Below are positions 12,422 through 32,000 of a stretch of DNA of 32,000 nucleotides, piece after piece (position 1 is the first letter of the stretch; every line of letters begins with the position of its first letter). Under the pieces are notes generated by a model. The model saw only the letters and a program-made list of their open reading frames with translations, did not search any database and was not told the DNA's origin. Position numbers and translations under genes: made by a program. The stretch is from positions 2,760,001 through 2,792,000 of the forward strand of contig NC_008340.1 in assembly GCF_000014785.1 (NCBI RefSeq), given 5' to 3'. This DNA is from Alkalilimnicola ehrlichii MLHE-1. Its GTDB lineage: Bacteria > Pseudomonadota > Gammaproteobacteria > Nitrococcales > Halorhodospiraceae.

Positions 12422-14539
12422 TCAGACCTGGCCATAGCGCTCGGAGGCCCCGACCCAGCGCCTTACCAGCGGCTCCACCCGCTCCGGGTGCGCCTGCTGC
12501 AGCCGGTCGCCCAGTACCTGCACCCGCGGCAACAGGCCCGCATCCCGGTTGAGATCCGCCACCCGGTAGCTCAGTTCCCCGGTCTGACGGGTGCCGAGCA
12601 ACTCGCCGGGGCCGCGGATCTCCAAATCCCGCCGGGCGATCTCGAAGCCGTCGTTGCTCCGGCGCAGCACCTCCAGGCGCGCCCGCGCCGCCTGCGACAA
12701 CGGGCCATGATACATCAGCACGCAACTGCTTTCGGCCTCGCCCCGGCCCACCCGGCCGCGCAGCTGGTGCAACTGCGCCAACCCCAGCCGCTCGGCGTTC
12801 TCGATGATCATCAGGCTGGCGTTGGGCACGTTCACCCCCACCTCGATCACCGTGGTGGCCACCAACAGCCCGATCCGGCCGGCGGCAAAGTCCGCCATCA
12901 CCGTGTCCTTATCCGCCGGTTTCATGCGCCCATGCACCAACCCCACCCGGTGCCCGGGGAGGGCCGCCTGCAGGGCGGCGTAGGTCTCCTCCGCGGCCTG
13001 GGCCTCCAGCACCTCCGAGTCCTCAATCAGGGTGCAGACCCAATAGGCCTGCCGGCCCTGGGCCAGCGCGGCGCCGATGCGTGCCACCACCTCGTCCCGC
13101 CGAGTCTCCGAGACGGCCACGGTCTTCACCGGCTTGCGGCCCGGGGGCAGTTGGTCGATCACCGAGACGTCCAGGTCGGCGTAGGCGGTCATCGCCAGGG
13201 TGCGCGGGATGGGGGTGGCGGTCATGATGATCTGGTGGGGCTGGCTCCGCCCCCGGTGGCCCTTCTCCTTCAGGGCCAGGCGCTGGTGCACACCGAAGCG
13301 GTGCTGCTCGTCGACGATGACCAGCCCCAGGGCCTGGAAACGCACGTCGTCCTGGAACAGGGCGTGGGTGCCCACCACCACCGGGTAGTCCCCGGCCGCC
13401 AGCGCCGCCAGCATGGCCTCCCGCCGCCGCCCGGCAGCGCGCCCCGACACCCAGCCCACGGGGATATCCAGCGGCGCCAGCCATTCGTTGAAGCTGCGCC
13501 AGTGCTGCTCCGCCAGCAGCTCGGTGGGCGCCATGATGGCGGCTTGATAGCCGGCCTCCACGGCCCGAAGGGCGGCCAGGGCCGCGACCACGGTCTTGCC
13601 GGAACCCACGTCACCCTGGACCAGGCGCAGCATGGGCACCGACCGGGTCATGTCCTCCGCCAGCTCCCGGTCCACCCGGCGCTGGGCCTCGGTGAGCGCG
13701 AAGGGGAGTGAGTCCAACAACCGGCGGGTGAGGCGGCCGTCGCCGTGGATGGTGGGGGCGTCGGCGGCGGCCTGCAGGTGGGCGCGCAGCCGGCGCATGG
13801 AGAGGTGGTGGGCCAACAGCTCTTCCACCGCCAGCCGCTGGACACAGGGGTGGCGGCCCTCGACCAGCGGTGCGGTGTCGGCATCCACCGGTGGCTTGTG
13901 CACGTAGTACAGGGCCTCGGCCAGCGCGGGCAGCCCCAGCTCGCGGGTCAGTTCCGCGGGCAGCCAGTCGGGCATGTGCCGCGCCAGGGCCAGGGCCTGG
14001 TCGATGAGCTTGCGCAGGGTCTGTTGGTGCAGGCCCTGGGTGGTGGGATAGACCGGGGTGAGGCCGTGCGGGCCCTCGTCGCCGGCGCTGGCGCGGGGGC
14101 CCAGGCGGTACTCCGGGTGCACCATCTGCGGGCCGGTGGGGCCGGGGCGCAGTTCACCGAAGCAGCGGATGGGGGTGCCGGGGCGCATCTGCTGGCGCTG
14201 CCCCGGGTGGAAGTGGAAGAACACCAGATCGGCGCTGCCAGTGCCGTCGCTGATCTGCACGATGAGCCGTTTGCGCCGCCCCTCGGCGATACCGGCATGC
14301 TCCACCCGGCCGATGACGACGCCGGACTCCCCCGGGCGCAGGGCGCCGAGCCGGCGGACGGTGTCACGGTCCTCGTAGCGCAGCGGCAGGTGGAACAGCA
14401 GGTCCTGCACGGTCGCCAGGTGCAGACGGGCCAGGCGCTCGGCCAGTTGCGGCCCGACCCCGCGCAGCGCGGTGATCGGCTGGCCGGCCGGGTCCTGGTC
14501 GCTGGCGGATGCGCTGCTGGGGGCCTGGGGTTCACTCAC
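12422..14539 (-). CDS. recG: ATP-dependent DNA helicase RecG
   Basis: Walker A GDVGSGKT, DEQHRFG, QLHQLRGRVGRG, and an N-terminal wedge region. GTG start at 14539. Confidence 0.95.
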   Translation of the reverse strand: MSEPQAPSSASASDQDPAGQPITALRGVGPQLAERLARLHLATVQDLLFHLPLRYEDRDTVRRLGALRPGESGVVIGRVEHAGIAEGRRKRLIVQISDGTGSADLVFFHFHPGQRQQMRPGTPIRCFGELRPGPTGPQMVHPEYRLGPRASAGDEGPHGLTPVYPTTQGLHQQTLRKLIDQALALARHMPDWLPAELTRELGLPALAEALYYVHKPPVDADTAPLVEGRHPCVQRLAVEELLAHHLSMRRLRAHLQAAADAPTIHGDGRLTRRLLDSLPFALTEAQRRVDRELAEDMTRSVPMLRLVQGDVGSGKTVVAALAALRAVEAGYQAAIMAPTELLAEQHWRSFNEWLAPLDIPVGWVSGRAAGRRREAMLAALAAGDYPVVVGTHALFQDDVRFQALGLVIVDEQHRFGVHQRLALKEKGHRGRSQPHQIIMTATPIPRTLAMTAYADLDVSVIDQLPPGRKPVKTVAVSETRRDEVVARIGAALAQGRQAYWVCTLIEDSEVLEAQAAEETYAALQAALPGHRVGLVHGRMKPADKDTVMADFAAGRIGLLVATTVIEVGVNVPNASLMIIENAERLGLAQLHQLRGRVGRGEAESSCVLMYHGPLSQAARARLEVLRRSNDGFEIARRDLEIRGPGELLGTRQTGELSYRVADLNRDAGLLPRVQVLGDRLQQAHPERVEPLVRRWVGASERYGQV

Positions 14540-23149: not shown

Positions 23150-23192
23150 CCCGCGCCAGCCCGCGCTGCCGGTCCCGCCGGCGGGAGGCGAC

Positions 23193-23390
23193 ATGACGGC
23201 CGAAACCCGGGAACAGTTCATCCAGTGCCCCTATTGCGGCAGTCATTACCACGCCGTGGTGGATCTGTCCGGCGGAGATCAAGTCTATATTGAGGATTGC
23301 GAAGTCTGCTGCCGCCCCATCGAGTTCCAGCTCCACCTGGACGCGGAAGGGCACTTCGCCGAGCTGGTATTGAGGCGAGACGATGACTGA
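23193..23390 (+). CDS. CPXCG-motif cysteine-rich small protein
   Basis: 65 aa: ...IQCPYCGSHY...EDCEVCCRPIEF. ATG at 23193. Confidence 0.75.
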   Translation: MTAETREQFIQCPYCGSHYHAVVDLSGGDQVYIEDCEVCCRPIEFQLHLDAEGHFAELVLRRDDD

Positions 23391-23634
23391 CCGCCCGGAT
23401 AACGACGACTACCGGCCCATCTCCTGCGAGCGGTACGCGGAGCTGGAACTGCACATCATGCACGCGCGCCGCCTGCGGGTGGCCTGGCGTACCCCGCAGG
23501 GCCAGCACATCGACACCCTGATCCCCGAAGACCTCCACACCCGGGACGGGGCGGAGTACCTGGTGGCCCGCAACCGGCTGGGCGAGGCCTTCATTATCCG
23601 CCTGGATCAACTGCAGCGGTTCCGGCCCTTGTGA
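23383..23634 (+). CDS. rof: Rho-binding antiterminator Rof (YaeO family)
   Basis: YRPISCERYAELELHI...EYLVARN...IRLDQL parallels E. coli Rof (YQPINCDDYDNLELAC...EYLVV...LRLDKI). Overlaps the upstream gene by 8 nt. Confidence 0.8.
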   Translation: MTDRPDNDDYRPISCERYAELELHIMHARRLRVAWRTPQGQHIDTLIPEDLHTRDGAEYLVARNRLGEAFIIRLDQLQRFRPL

Positions 23635-23701
23635 CTACCGGTTCACATTAATACTGCTACCCCAATTCACATACGTTTTAAATAAGCATAGGCTGCACGG
23701 G

Positions 23702-29077: not shown

Positions 29078-30343
29078 TTACTCGAAGGCGCCTTCAGAGG
29101 CCTCGGCAAACCGGTAGCTCTGGTCCTTGAGCACGCCCGGCACGCCCTTGGGCTTGCGGGCCAGACCGCGGTTGTGACGGGAGGCGATCTTGCGCCAGGT
29201 CACCACCGAGGCGTCCATGTCGGCCAGCTGCTCCTCGTTCCAGCCGGTGCCATCGGCGTAGAAGTTTTGCATGGCGTCGCGGGCGAACAGGTCGCAGTCG
29301 TTGAAGCCGTGCAGGCACATGGGCTTGTAGAGGTTCTCAAAGCGGTACTCGAAGTCCTTGCGCTCCTGCTCGTCCTTGCAGTGCTTGACCAGCACCTCCC
29401 AGTACTCATAGGTGTCGTCGGTAATGGGCACGTACCACTCGTACTGCACCACATGGTCCTCCGGCCAGTTCTCCACCATGAGCACGCCGGGCAGGTACAT
29501 GGAGGTGCGGAAGTAGCGGGGCACGGTGCCCTGCGCCTTCACACCCAGCTTTTCGTTCTCCAGGATCGGTTCGTAGTGGTCCGTGTAGTACCGGTTCAGG
29601 AAGCCCTTGGGGCCGTTGTCGTCCTCGATCAGCGCGATGGCCTGGTCGGTGACCGGTTTCACCCCCAACGGCAGCGCCCAGTCACGGGCGTGCACGATGG
29701 CGTTGTCCTTGTGGATCAGCAGGTGGCCCGGATCAAAGCCGTTCTCGGCCGCCAGTCGCCAGTTGGCGTACCCCTTGCGGTGGATACCGAGGGCAACGGA
29801 GTGCTCGTCCAGCACGCTGGGGGTATCGGGCCAGTAGGGGTGCGGGAAACGCTCGTTGTTCTCCGGATAACGCAGCGGCAGGTCCGCGGCCAGCGGGGGC
29901 ACGTCCTCGTCCCAGTCCTCGTCGCAGACGAACACGAAGATCATGCCGCTGTGCTCCTCGACGGCAAACGTCTGAACGCCGGTGGTGCCGATGATCTCGT
30001 CATCGGGCGCGGCCACGATGGAGACCAGCTTGCCGGAGGCCAGGTCGAAGGTGAAGCCGTGGTACCAGCAGGTGATGGTGTCATCGGTAAGGCACATGGG
30101 TTTGGCCGAAAGCTTCACGCCACGGTGGATGCACTGGTCCTTCAGGGCGTAGACCTTGCCCTTGGAACGACGCAGAACGATGGGCACACCACAGATCTGG
30201 ATGCCCTTGGTATCACCCTCCTCCAGTTCGTGGGTGAACAGGGCCGGGTACCAGTGATTGATGAAACCCCACTCGGCTTCCAGGTAGGGCTGGTACATGC
30301 GCTTGGCCAGCTTGTCGTTGATGACCTTGGGATCGGCAGCCAT
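29078..30343 (-). CDS. Rieske [2Fe-2S] non-heme-iron oxygenase alpha subunit, CarAa/OxoO-like (beta-subunit-less class)
   Basis: Rieske motif CIHRG...CWYHG and iron-site region NWRLAAENGFDPGHLLIHKDN. From memory, GFINHWYP, LPGVLMV, YEWYVPI, DLFARDAM.NFYAD and VTWRKIASRHNRG are colinear with carbazole 1,9a-dioxygenase CarAa. Strong SD GAGGAGG. Confidence 0.8.
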   Translation of the reverse strand: MAADPKVINDKLAKRMYQPYLEAEWGFINHWYPALFTHELEEGDTKGIQICGVPIVLRRSKGKVYALKDQCIHRGVKLSAKPMCLTDDTITCWYHGFTFDLASGKLVSIVAAPDDEIIGTTGVQTFAVEEHSGMIFVFVCDEDWDEDVPPLAADLPLRYPENNERFPHPYWPDTPSVLDEHSVALGIHRKGYANWRLAAENGFDPGHLLIHKDNAIVHARDWALPLGVKPVTDQAIALIEDDNGPKGFLNRYYTDHYEPILENEKLGVKAQGTVPRYFRTSMYLPGVLMVENWPEDHVVQYEWYVPITDDTYEYWEVLVKHCKDEQERKDFEYRFENLYKPMCLHGFNDCDLFARDAMQNFYADGTGWNEEQLADMDASVVTWRKIASRHNRGLARKPKGVPGVLKDQSYRFAEASEGAFE

Positions 30344-30432
30344 TTTTCATCCTCCTCGGATAGTGCGGTGCCCTCTGGGGGGCGTCTCGTGTTAGCCAGC
30401 GGTCGCTTATCGCCGACCGTGCCTACTGTTTA

Positions 30433-30462
30433 GTACATGACAGGATCGTCTGTCAATTGATT
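30433..30462 (-). promoter_or_regulatory. Candidate promoter plus operator of the Rieske/amidase/M20-like unit
   Basis: The minus strand reads ATAAAAAATCAA-TTGACA-gacgatcctgtcaTGtACTAAA, with a perfect -35, an A-tract upstream and a TG-extended weak -10. The inverted repeat TGACAG-N6-CTGTCA (30438-30455) overlaps the -35 and spacer. Confidence 0.4.
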
Positions 30463-30464
30463 TT

Positions 30465-31061
30465 TTATCGATATTCGATGCATTTTGGTTGCAGCCACCC
30501 CGCAAAGGCCCGGGTCAGCAGGGGGAGCAACAGGTAGCTCATCACCGGCACCACCACCCCGGTCACCACCAGCAGGCGCACGGGCAGCGGCAGCGCCATC
30601 AACCAACCGCCGGCCAGGGAGAAGATCAGCCAGAGCAGTGGGAACAGGGCCAGCCATACCAACAGGGCCATCTTGTAACGCGGGGGCTCTGCTCTGGTCG
30701 CGGCCGCCGACGGCCTGCGGCCACAGGTGGACGCGGTGGTACTGACCTTGGTGGGCATGCCGTCGACCAACGACGGCGACCAGAGCTGCCAGCAGCCCCA
30801 GCGGATGGCCACCGCACCGGCCAGATCATCCCAGCGCTGAAACAGCGCTGAGCGGCGCAACCGCTCCAGGCTCTCCTCGCCTTTGAGCCGAAGGAGCAGC
30901 CGGTAGCGGCAGCGTTCCCGGACCAAGTCACAGACCTCCGCCTCGCCACTGCGCTCCACCGCCCGCCGCCATTCCTCGAAGGCCGACAGGAACGCCGGCT
31001 CCTCCCCGCAGCGCACATGCCACTCGCTGCTCAGCCAGATACCGTCTTTCGTGTTGTGCAT
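30465..31061 (-). CDS. ABM (antibiotic-biosynthesis-monooxygenase-like) domain protein with two C-terminal TM helices
   Basis: ATG at 31061 behind GGAGGAGAC. The N-terminal ~110 aa look like a soluble alpha+beta domain. The C-terminus PPRYKMALLVWLALFPLLWLIF...LLVVTGVVVPVMSYLLLPLLTRAFAGWL is typical of membrane-anchored ABM proteins. Confidence 0.6.
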   Translation of the reverse strand: MHNTKDGIWLSSEWHVRCGEEPAFLSAFEEWRRAVERSGEAEVCDLVRERCRYRLLLRLKGEESLERLRRSALFQRWDDLAGAVAIRWGCWQLWSPSLVDGMPTKVSTTASTCGRRPSAAATRAEPPRYKMALLVWLALFPLLWLIFSLAGGWLMALPLPVRLLVVTGVVVPVMSYLLLPLLTRAFAGWLQPKCIEYR

Positions 31062-31120
31062 GTCTCCTCCGGATGCCTCGCATCGATGTCGCCTGCCGGC
31101 CACCTTATCTTTGTTTTTGA

Positions 31121-31149
31121 TTGACGTTCAATAGACTGTCAAGTAATTT
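31121..31149 (+). promoter_or_regulatory. Candidate promoter plus operator of the hydrolase transcription unit
   Basis: TTGACG-N17-TAATTT preceded by a T-tract. The inverted repeat TTGAC-N12-GTCAA (31121-31142) shares TTGAC/CTGTCA half-sites with the Rieske promoter. Confidence 0.35.
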
Positions 31150-31223
31150 TATCTCAACCGCGAACGAAAACCACCCACGACGGTGGCGCGGTGACCCTTA
31201 AACAGGAGGAAGGAGAGCGCACG

Positions 31224-32000
31224 ATGACGCAGAACCCCGAAATCGGCCTGTTCCACGAGGCCGACGGCATCAAGACCAACTACCACGACGTGGGCGATGG
31301 CCACCCGGTCGTGCTCCTGCACGGCTCCGGGGCCGGCGTGACCGCCTGGGCCAACTGGATGGGACTGATCCCGGAGTTGTCCCAGGAACGCCGGGTGGTG
31401 GCACCGGATCTGGCCGGTTTCGGCTACACCGAGGTGCCCGACGATATCGAGTACCGCTTCATGGACACCTGGGTGGACCAGATGGTCCGACTGCTCGACG
31501 CCCTGGAGATCGAGCGCACCGACCTGGTGGGCAATTCCTTCGGCGGCACGCTGGCCATCGCCCTGGCAGTGCACCACCCGGAGCGGGTGCGGCGCATGGT
31601 CCTGATGGGCAGCGGCGGCCAGCCCTTCACCGTCAGCCCGGAGCTGGAGGCGCTGTGGGGCTATACCCCGTCGTTCGAGAACATGCGCCGCATTCTCGAC
31701 ATCATGGCCTTCGACCGCTCGCTGGTGACCGACGACATCGCCGATATCCGCTACCGGGCCACCATCCGTCCCGGGGTGCAGGAGCGGTTCGAGCGCATCT
31801 TCCCGCCACCCCGCCAGCGTTGGGCCGATGCCACCGTGTTCTCTGATGAGCAGCTCGCCGGCATCGACCACGAGACCCTGATCCTGCACGGCCGCGAGGA
31901 CCGGGTGGTGCCGGTCGCTGTCTCCGAGCAGCTGTTCCGAAAGATCGACCGGGCCCAACTGCACATCTTTGGCCGTTGCGGGCACTGGACCCAGATCGAG
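31224..32000 (+). CDS. Meta-cleavage-product (C-C bond) hydrolase, alpha/beta-hydrolase fold (BphD/CarC/TodF-like); C-terminus beyond the window; not in the supplied ORF track
   Basis: Hand translation from ATG 31224 (SD AGGAGGAAGGAG) gives 259 codons with no stop to position 32000: MTQNPEIGLFHEADGIKTNYHDVGDGHPVVLLHGSGAGVTAW...LVGNSFGG...LILHGREDRVVP...FGRCGHWTQIE. This supplies the Ser, Asp and His triad motifs. Confidence 0.88.
   Translation, partial: MTQNPEIGLFHEADGIKTNYHDVGDGHPVVLLHGSGAGVTAWANWMGLIPELSQERRVVAPDLAGFGYTEVPDDIEYRFMDTWVDQMVRLLDALEIERTDLVGNSFGGTLAIALAVHHPERVRRMVLMGSGGQPFTVSPELEALWGYTPSFENMRRILDIMAFDRSLVTDDIADIRYRATIRPGVQERFERIFPPPRQRWADATVFSDEQLAGIDHETLILHGREDRVVPVAVSEQLFRKIDRAQLHIFGRCGHWTQIE

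Follow-up and report, generated by a model that had tools for sequence, protein, structure and literature searches.

A CumD-like meta-cleavage-product hydrolase gene at the end of a 32,000-nucleotide window of Alkalilimnicola ehrlichii MLHE-1 and its putative catabolic setting

The gene considered here begins at position 31,224 on the plus strand of a 32,000-nucleotide stretch of Alkalilimnicola ehrlichii MLHE-1 DNA (contig NC_008340.1, positions 2,760,001 to 2,792,000; hereafter, the window) and runs off its end. The closest described system is that of CumD, the 2-hydroxy-6-oxo-7-methylocta-2,4-dienoate hydrolase of Pseudomonas fluorescens IP01 (PDB 1iun and 2d0d), a meta-cleavage-product (MCP) hydrolase of 282 residues that belongs to the cumene (isopropylbenzene) operon and works alongside an alpha/beta-type Rieske dioxygenase. 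Hydrolases of the DmpD/XylF type fall into the same CumD-like clade; their pathway continues with a DmpE-type hydratase, an acetaldehyde dehydrogenase and an aldolase, and the hydratase gene lies immediately downstream of the hydrolase gene. MhpC of Escherichia coli (PDB 1u2e) is a more distant member of the same family and is partnered by a LigB-type dioxygenase, MhpB.

A neighbor of the gene calls up a further system, oxoO/oxoR of the quinoline-degrading Pseudomonas putida 86, in which quinoline is broken down via 8-hydroxycoumarin. In the first half of this route, 2-hydroxyquinoline is converted to 2,8-dihydroxyquinoline and then to 8-hydroxycoumarin and NH4+; in the second half, 2,3-dihydroxyphenylpropionate yields 2-hydroxy-6-oxonona-2,4-diene-1,9-dioate by meta-cleavage (PMC9029321). 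XenA reduces 8-hydroxycoumarin (PMC5519977). Our literature search retrieved nothing specific on OxoO-linked meta-cleavage clusters or on amidases of the 8-hydroxycoumarin pathway.

We consider it highly likely that the MLHE-1 gene is a genuine MCP hydrolase gene of the CumD clade and that, judging from synteny with orthologous loci, it lies within a catabolic island. The gene itself is a routine and ordinary member of a well-understood enzyme family and is already annotated in public databases.

The hydrolase gene and its product

From an ATG at 31224..31226, the plus strand reads through 259 sense codons without a stop up to base 32000, as the initial annotation had described, and the start is preceded by a strong Shine-Dalgarno site (Table 1). 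The AAGGAG core of this site is kept in metagenomic locus L081 and in L089 from Alkalispirillum mobile. The nearest in-frame stop upstream of the ATG is at 31122, and GTG 31191 is the only alternative in-frame start. Because the alignment with CumD opens at query residue 4 and CumD residue 3, ATG 31224 is supported as the start. The translation is identical to residues 1-259 of a 278-residue MLHE-1 protein (ABI57796.1, WP_011630189.1, UniProt Q0A5U1), which carries the public names 'alpha/beta fold hydrolase' or '2-hydroxymuconate semialdehyde hydrolase' and belongs to the 90% cluster that includes the best match to the hydrolase.

The sequence could be extended beyond the window with contig L088 (1360 nt), which matches window positions 30709..32000 with 0 mismatches over 1292 nt and continues for 68 nt past the window end. 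Since L088 supplies the last 19 codons, QKQRFISLVRQFLNEADAQ, followed by TGA, the coding sequence is intact, and its end would fall at window-equivalent 32060. Metagenome contigs gave no match to an exact 38-nt pattern taken from the gene's end. The open reading frame (ORF) list made for the window contained a minus-strand ORF at 31149..31985 (278 residues) and lacked its plus-strand counterpart. The claim that a real gene was absent from the ORF track is therefore correct, and the absence is an edge artefact, because the list leaves out ORFs that continue past either end of the sequence.

All four motifs named in the initial annotation are present in the product: HGSGAG (residues 33-38), GNSFGG (residues 103-108), HGREDRVVP (residues 222-230) and CGHWTQIE (residues 252-259). 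Residues 28-259 matched the Pfam Abhydrolase_1 profile over positions 2-243 of 245 (E 3.4e-33), in keeping with an alpha/beta-hydrolase fold. Against CumD (PDB 1iun), the hydrolase showed 59.8% identity over 256 aligned residues with one 1-residue gap (E 1e-101). The other solved MCP hydrolases, DxnB2, BphD, CarC, HsaD and MhpC, matched with E-values of 1e-41 to 1e-32, while the best non-MCP esterase reached E 4e-22 and esterases, epoxide hydrolases and dehalogenases trailed at about E 1e-22 or worse. Similarity to characterized MCP members is thus clearly above that to other alpha/beta hydrolases.

Ser105 (within GNSFGG, a G-x-S-x-G nucleophile elbow), Asp226 and His254 align with Ser103, Asp224 and His252, the catalytic triad of CumD. 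Six further CumD residues, S34, N43, N102, W143, C250 and W253, are identical in the hydrolase (S35, N44, N104, W145, C252 and W255). They belong to the MCP-specific active site at the dienoate subsite, which includes the Ser/Gly that follows HG, the Asn in front of the nucleophile and the Cys-Gly-His-Trp block, and we assign to them the functional roles of their equivalents in BphD, MhpC and CumD. With the triad conserved and CumD as the best solved match, the proposed identity as an MCP hydrolase stands: the product is classed from its sequence as a serine-dependent alpha/beta-hydrolase of the MCP C-C hydrolase family, CumD-like clade, and would cleave a C-C bond of a 2-hydroxy-6-oxo-2,4-dienoate.

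A finer assignment is not given by the curated models. The hydrolase scored 181.6 bits on the HsaD equivalog (NF045632; cut-off 400) and 137.3 bits on the BphD equivalog (TIGR03343; cut-off 462), and a full-length ortholog scored 189.4 and 145.6 bits, respectively; because no equivalog cut-off was reached, the hydrolase cannot be placed in a substrate-specific equivalog. In a scan of GTDB representatives, the best match was 64% identical. We also considered whether Rhodococcus matches of 65-66% identity were the alkylphenol-pathway 'AphD', and rejected this since AphD there is a dehydrogenase.

Coding strand at the window edge

The listed minus-strand ORF had been called a shadow of the plus-strand gene. 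The DNA here is 69% GC, and the chance of a 259-codon open frame is about 0.005 per frame; because the antisense frame is open as well, openness alone decides nothing. GC content at codon positions 1, 2 and 3 (GC1/GC2/GC3) is 0.69/0.42/0.90 in the plus frame (GC3 0.903), a normal pattern for a 69% GC genome, and 0.875/0.427/0.692 in the minus ORF. The GC1 peak of the minus ORF arises because its first codon position mirrors the wobble position of the plus frame, and the GC3 comparison of the two strands favors the plus frame.

We compared the window gene with three orthologs of 87-92% nucleotide identity (L081, L089 and L090, the last from a third lineage). Sorted by plus-frame codon position 1/2/3, the substitutions numbered 8/6/85 in L081, 8/5/83 in L089 and 5/0/59 in L090. 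Read in the plus frame, they alter 9-14 of 259 amino acids (3-5%); read in the minus frame, they alter 58-89 of 254 (23-35%). The plus-frame product matched Abhydrolase_1 (E 3e-33) and many NCBIfam models, and the minus ORF product, which has a high content of Gly, Val, Ala, Leu and His, had no match in Pfam or NCBIfam.

The chance that the minus ORF is the real gene and the plus frame an accident is negligible. The minus ORF is complete, with 278 residues and a GTG start, and is stop-free in three relatives, but it has no family match, its GC content is highest at codon position 1 rather than 3, its product varies far more between close relatives than that of the plus frame, and the plus-strand gene is the one annotated by gene callers and GenBank. 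This alternative is effectively refuted already. Codon-position composition, homology and substitution pattern together identify the minus ORF as a compositional shadow in high-GC DNA, not a gene, and on this point the initial annotation was right.

ORF lists that omit open-ended ORFs systematically hide real genes at window edges, and in high-GC DNA such lists also present a long antisense shadow instead of the real gene. The codon-position GC content and the position of substitutions between relatives cleanly separate the two.

Neighboring genes and orthologous loci

For the DNA past the hydrolase gene, L089, L081 and the third lineage (L090 and L091) served as stand-ins for MLHE-1. The alignments of L089 and L090 to the window span 10.7-10.8 kb, with 79-86% identity and a shared gene order. 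After the hydrolase gene, L081, L089, L090 and L091 share a NifU/NfuA-like gene on the plus strand, an extradiol dioxygenase and a reductase on the minus strand, and then a plus-strand set of 2-oxopent-4-enoate hydratase, acetylating acetaldehyde dehydrogenase and 4-hydroxy-2-oxovalerate aldolase genes, followed by genes for an FMN-reductase-like protein and a chemoreceptor. An extradiol dioxygenase together with a dienoate lower pathway, both outside the window itself, accompanies the hydrolase in these four loci and in L087. The hydratase scored 432 bits (cut-off 409), and the dehydrogenase and aldolase likewise lie above their NCBIfam equivalog cut-offs. The dioxygenase reached 281 bits against the model for biphenyl-2,3-diol dioxygenase but only 74 bits against that for catechol 2,3-dioxygenase (cut-off 320), and its best solved homologs are BphC-type (type I). 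The reductase has a Fer2-FAD-NAD architecture of the BenC/OxoR class, with the ferredoxin as a fused domain.

The initial annotation had suggested that the hydrolase gene starts a transcription unit that leaves the window, and that an extradiol dioxygenase and the ferredoxin and reductase partners of the neighboring Rieske oxygenase may lie just downstream. Synteny in three orthologous loci agrees with the presence of the dioxygenase and reductase, but there they are convergent with the hydrolase gene and, because they lie on the opposite strand, outside its transcription unit. The ferredoxin is found as the Fer2 domain of the FAD/NAD reductase, and not as a separate gene, in the orthologous loci. 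The unit itself probably does extend past the window: the hydrolase gene diverges from the 198-residue ORF upstream, and a same-strand NifU-like gene lies 22-77 nt past the hydrolase in all relatives (27-30 nt, and with its own ribosome-binding site, in the three closest). We predict from this arrangement that the hydrolase is co-transcribed with the NifU/NfuA-like iron-sulfur (Fe-S) carrier. The NifU-like gene, which falls below the NfuA equivalog cut-off, is directly downstream of the hydrolase in every clade member of at least 68% identity, L082-L087 included, and the Rieske and Fer2 proteins of the pathway may be the clients of its product. Aromatic catabolic operons do not usually include an Fe-S delivery protein of their own.

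Table 1. Features of the window and, for the NifU/NfuA-like gene, of three orthologous loci
Feature	Coordinates	Strand	Basis or remark
Shine-Dalgarno region AGGAGGAAGGAG	31204..31215	+	8-nt spacer to ATG; sequence reading
MCP C-C hydrolase gene, CumD clade, 5' 259/278 codons (93%)	31224..32000	+	Open frame, homology, GC3, identity with ABI57796.1
Antisense shadow ORF, 278 aa, GTG start	31149..31985	-	No family match, GC pattern, ortholog divergence
Conserved AT-rich block	31102..31162	.	57 of 61 positions invariant across three genomes
Conserved 198-aa ORF, divergent from hydrolase	30465..31061	-	Likely start ATG 31061 behind GGAGGAG
OxoO-like homotrimeric Rieske oxygenase, 421 aa	29078..30343	-	Pfam Rieske and Aromatic_hydrox
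Amidase-signature enzyme, 467 aa	27602..29005	-	Pfam Amidase E 3e-79
Divergent M20-type hydrolase, NaaA-like, 437 aa	26273..27586	-	Weak ArgE/DapE and Peptidase_M20 matches
RecG	12422..14539	-	100% identical to RecG of MLHE-1
NifU/NfuA-like gene	L081 1015..1644; L089 10865..11497; L090 10865..11500		Fe-S_biosyn and NifU domains

Across the 89 loci fetched for a wider comparison, the gene context follows the identity of the hydrolase. Hydrolases at least 68% identical (L081-L087) always occur with an OxoO-like Rieske gene, a reductase, a BphC-type dioxygenase and a NifU-like gene. At 61% identity, L029 has the OxoO-like gene, reductase and dioxygenase, and a NifU match was not detected there. 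Hydrolases of 56-64% identity (from phenol or toluene meta-pathway clusters in Thauera, Variovorax and Rhodoferax, and from others) have a DmpE-type hydratase directly after them and are without OxoO-like or NifU-like partners. Because the dmpD-dmpE arrangement is confined to this 56-64% clade, the name '2-hydroxymuconate semialdehyde hydrolase' is probably over-specific for ABI57796.1. In L087 and L029, the OxoO-like cluster comes with the amidase and M20 pair described below; L087 also has two tandem hydrolase paralogs. In L082 (3060..9572), L086 (2916..9429) and L087 (3648..9938), the cluster adjoins a four-gene BNR(Ycf48-like)/MMPL/DUF1302/DUF1329 module, and in L082 and L086 also an Amdase-family gene and a zinc alcohol dehydrogenase. 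For the core cluster, these adjoining genes hint at an ancestral substrate that was hydrophobic and not necessarily a quinolinone.

Inside the window, three genes on the minus strand stand out. The Rieske protein is 64% identical to OxoO (PDB 1z01, 2-oxo-1,2-dihydroquinoline 8-monooxygenase) over 411 residues (E 4e-199) and keeps the iron ligands His221, His225 and Asp365 as well as the ENGFD segment. The best solved homolog of the amidase is malonamidase E2 (1ock, E 9e-72). For the M20-type protein, the best and only good solved relative is NaaA, a 5-nitroanthranilate aminohydrolase (aryl-amine deaminase; 5k8p), matched at full length with E 1e-26. The Rieske protein is 99.3% identical to its A. 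mobile counterpart (L089 7855..9120); the other identities between MLHE-1 and A. mobile are 75% for the amidase, 80% for the 198-residue ORF, 92% for the M20-like protein, 95% for the hydrolase and 76% for the GGDEF-EAL protein. The high value for the Rieske protein may point to a recent exchange or gene conversion confined to its gene, or else to exceptional constraint.

The 198-residue ORF is called as a gene with an equivalent of ATG 31061 as its start in L088, L089, L090 and L091. Its product has a strongly hydrophobic C-terminal third; the ORF itself had no match in our local Pfam copy, and its orthologs bear a precomputed Pfam assignment, PF27539 Y2318_C. It was found only in Alkalilimnicola/Alkalispirillum-type loci and not in L082-L087. 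Between this ORF and the Rieske gene is a palindromic hairpin, TGACAGGATCGTCTGTCA, with a T-rich tail (30438..30455), flagged as terminator-like on the plus strand; it may split the two genes into different transcripts.

The hydrolase gene and the 198-residue ORF diverge across 162 nt. The AT-rich block in this region is invariant at 57 of 61 positions among MLHE-1, L089 and L081, compared with about 27 of 61 in the adjacent 5' untranslated region (5'-UTR), and is partly recognizable in L082 and L086. As a candidate promoter/operator, it could serve both the hydrolase operon and the 198-residue ORF. This proposal is based on conservation only, because a sigma-70 consensus scan of 30300..31400 returned 0 sites and no inverted repeats of at least 8 nt were found in the divergent intergenic region; the block includes TTGACG-17 nt-TAATTT, which is below the scanner threshold. 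Terminator-like minus-strand hairpins at 31170..31191 lie in the non-conserved 5'-UTR and were taken as chance matches.

Most of the window is housekeeping chromosome, and its content changes from 26273 onward. Besides recG, the housekeeping part holds a response regulator/histidine kinase pair, biotin-synthesis genes, ubiA/ubiC, spoT, gmk, yicC, rph, rdgB, hemN and a PBP-GGDEF-EAL protein. In orthologous loci, Zn_ribbon_21 (65 residues) and ROF (about 82 residues) genes are called between hemN and the PBP-GGDEF-EAL gene, equivalent to about 23150..23700 on the plus strand. Both are probably present in the window and below the ORF-length thresholds that we used.

Candidate pathway and comparison with described systems

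Together, the window and its orthologs point to a putative catabolic island of about 12 kb that would comprise the OxoO-like Rieske oxygenase, the fused ferredoxin-reductase, the BphC-type dioxygenase, the hydrolase and the hydratase/dehydrogenase/aldolase set. The Rieske enzyme would put on a hydroxyl group leading to a 3-substituted catechol, and the extradiol dioxygenase would open the catechol ring to give a 2-hydroxy-6-oxo-dienoate. The hydrolase would then cut the C5-C6 bond of this dienoate, releasing 2-hydroxypenta-2,4-dienoate and a carboxylic acid, and the lower pathway would convert 2-hydroxypenta-2,4-dienoate to pyruvate and acetyl-CoA.

What enters this pathway can be proposed only tentatively. 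Next to the OxoO-like gene are those of the amidase and the NaaA-like aminohydrolase, a neighborhood that hints at the breakdown of a 2-quinolinone-type compound. The substrate stream could possibly be such a benzo-lactam, processed by the 8-hydroxycoumarin route, with the hydrolase acting on 2-hydroxy-6-oxonona-2,4-diene-1,9-dioate as MhpC does; we regard this as a minority possibility. In that case the early steps would fall to the OxoO-like oxygenase, to the amidase for opening the lactam and to the NaaA-like aminohydrolase for removing the aryl amine, and the hydrolase would be the last dedicated step. A fuller version, which we find doubtful, is that haloalkaliphilic Ectothiorhodospiraceae hold a compact, undescribed 2-quinolinone-type island in which the amidase and the NaaA-like M20 protein are the enzymes, long without an assignment, that open the lactam and remove the nitrogen, and in which a dedicated NfuA paralog, transcribed together with the hydrolase, matures the Fe-S proteins. 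The lactam and nitrogen step of such an island would convert 8-hydroxy-2-quinolinone to 2,3-dihydroxycinnamate or 8-hydroxycoumarin and NH4+.

Several observations weigh against the catabolic assignment or its quinolinone form. The genes past window-equivalent 32068 are those of orthologs with 79-86% DNA identity, from which we infer their presence in MLHE-1. No curated model assigns a substrate specificity to the hydrolase, none of the NCBIfam equivalog cut-offs being reached, and the hydrolase is far closer to CumD (alkyl-side-chain substrates, E 1e-101) than to MhpC (E 3e-32). The quinolinone form is weakened by L082-L086, where the Rieske/reductase/dioxygenase/hydrolase/NifU core occurs but the amidase and M20 genes are lacking. 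It is also weakened in that no quinoline 2-oxidoreductase (qor) genes were seen in the window or the flanks examined. A literature search found no report of aromatic catabolism in Alkalilimnicola.

The database name suggests another role, that of a classic DmpD/XylF-type 2-hydroxymuconate semialdehyde (HMS) hydrolase that releases formate from the ring-fission product of unsubstituted catechol. UniProt and JGI give this name to ABI57796.1 and its relatives, the hydrolase is 56-64% identical to hydrolases directly upstream of DmpE-type hydratases, and the orthologous loci carry a DmpE/F/G-type lower pathway. We nevertheless judge this role improbable. The partner dioxygenase is of the BphC/DHBD type by model scores and solved homologs, and the clade of at least 68% identity has a conserved context of its own, with OxoO-like and NifU-like genes and no dmpD-dmpE pair. 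In the orthologous loci a NifU-like gene rather than a hydratase is directly downstream, unlike a DmpD/XylF operon. In addition, neither a phenol or benzene hydroxylase nor an HMS branch of dehydrogenase, tautomerase or decarboxylase was seen in L089 or L090.

It is also conceivable, though very unlikely, that the MCP scaffold serves mainly as an ester or lactone hydrolase, converting for example 8-hydroxy-3,4-dihydrocoumarin to 2,3-dihydroxyphenylpropionate, and is not the C-C hydrolase of the pathway. In favor of this alternative, esterase activity is also found among MCP hydrolases, and the tandem hydrolase paralogs of L087 hint at a division of labor. A lactone-opening step is in fact required by the 8-hydroxycoumarin route (PMC9029321). 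However, the CumD active-site residues that we checked are all identical in the hydrolase, the CGHW block included, and the Alkalilimnicola/Alkalispirillum-type clusters have no other candidate C-C hydrolase despite an extradiol dioxygenase and a lower pathway that consumes 2-hydroxypenta-2,4-dienoate. We therefore retain C-C cleavage as the predicted reaction.

The wider interest of the gene lies only in its context, where genes for an OxoO-like oxygenase, an amidase and a NaaA-like aminohydrolase are gathered with a meta-cleavage set in a host that is not known to degrade aromatic compounds. The amidase and the NaaA-like protein can be tested as candidates for the nitrogen-removal steps that have no enzyme assigned in quinoline degradation via 8-hydroxycoumarin.

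Compared with oxoO/oxoR of P. putida 86, the cluster shares the 64% identical Rieske protein and, in orthologous clusters, a reductase of the BenC/OxoR class. Unlike in P. putida 86, no qor genes were seen nearby, and the OxoO-like gene has meta-cleavage genes as well as those of the amidase and the NaaA-like aminohydrolase in its cluster. The hosts differ as well, MLHE-1 being a haloalkaliphilic arsenite oxidizer with no reported quinoline use. The hydrolase would catalyze the same reaction as MhpC, giving succinate and 2-hydroxypenta-2,4-dienoate, if the cluster runs the 8-hydroxycoumarin route. This analogy is suggested solely by the OxoO-like context: MhpC is distant in sequence (E 3e-32 to both 1u2e and 9ijk, versus 1e-101 for CumD), and, unlike the partner of MhpC, the cluster dioxygenase is type I and BphC-like. 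DmpD/XylF-type loci are nearer in sequence, but they have no OxoO-like or NifU-like gene, and the partner dioxygenase here is BphC-type.

CumD remains the closest match. The triad, the GNSFGG elbow, the HGREDxVVP segment and CGHWTQIE are common to both proteins, which are also of similar length (282 and 278 residues). In place of the alpha/beta-type Rieske dioxygenase of the cumene operon, the MLHE-1 cluster has a homotrimeric OxoO-like monooxygenase and a NifU-like gene. CumD position 129, a valine in chain 2d0d, which we take to be the engineered A129V variant affecting activity, corresponds to Gly131 in the hydrolase. The substrate of the MLHE-1 enzyme probably differs from that of CumD in its side chain.

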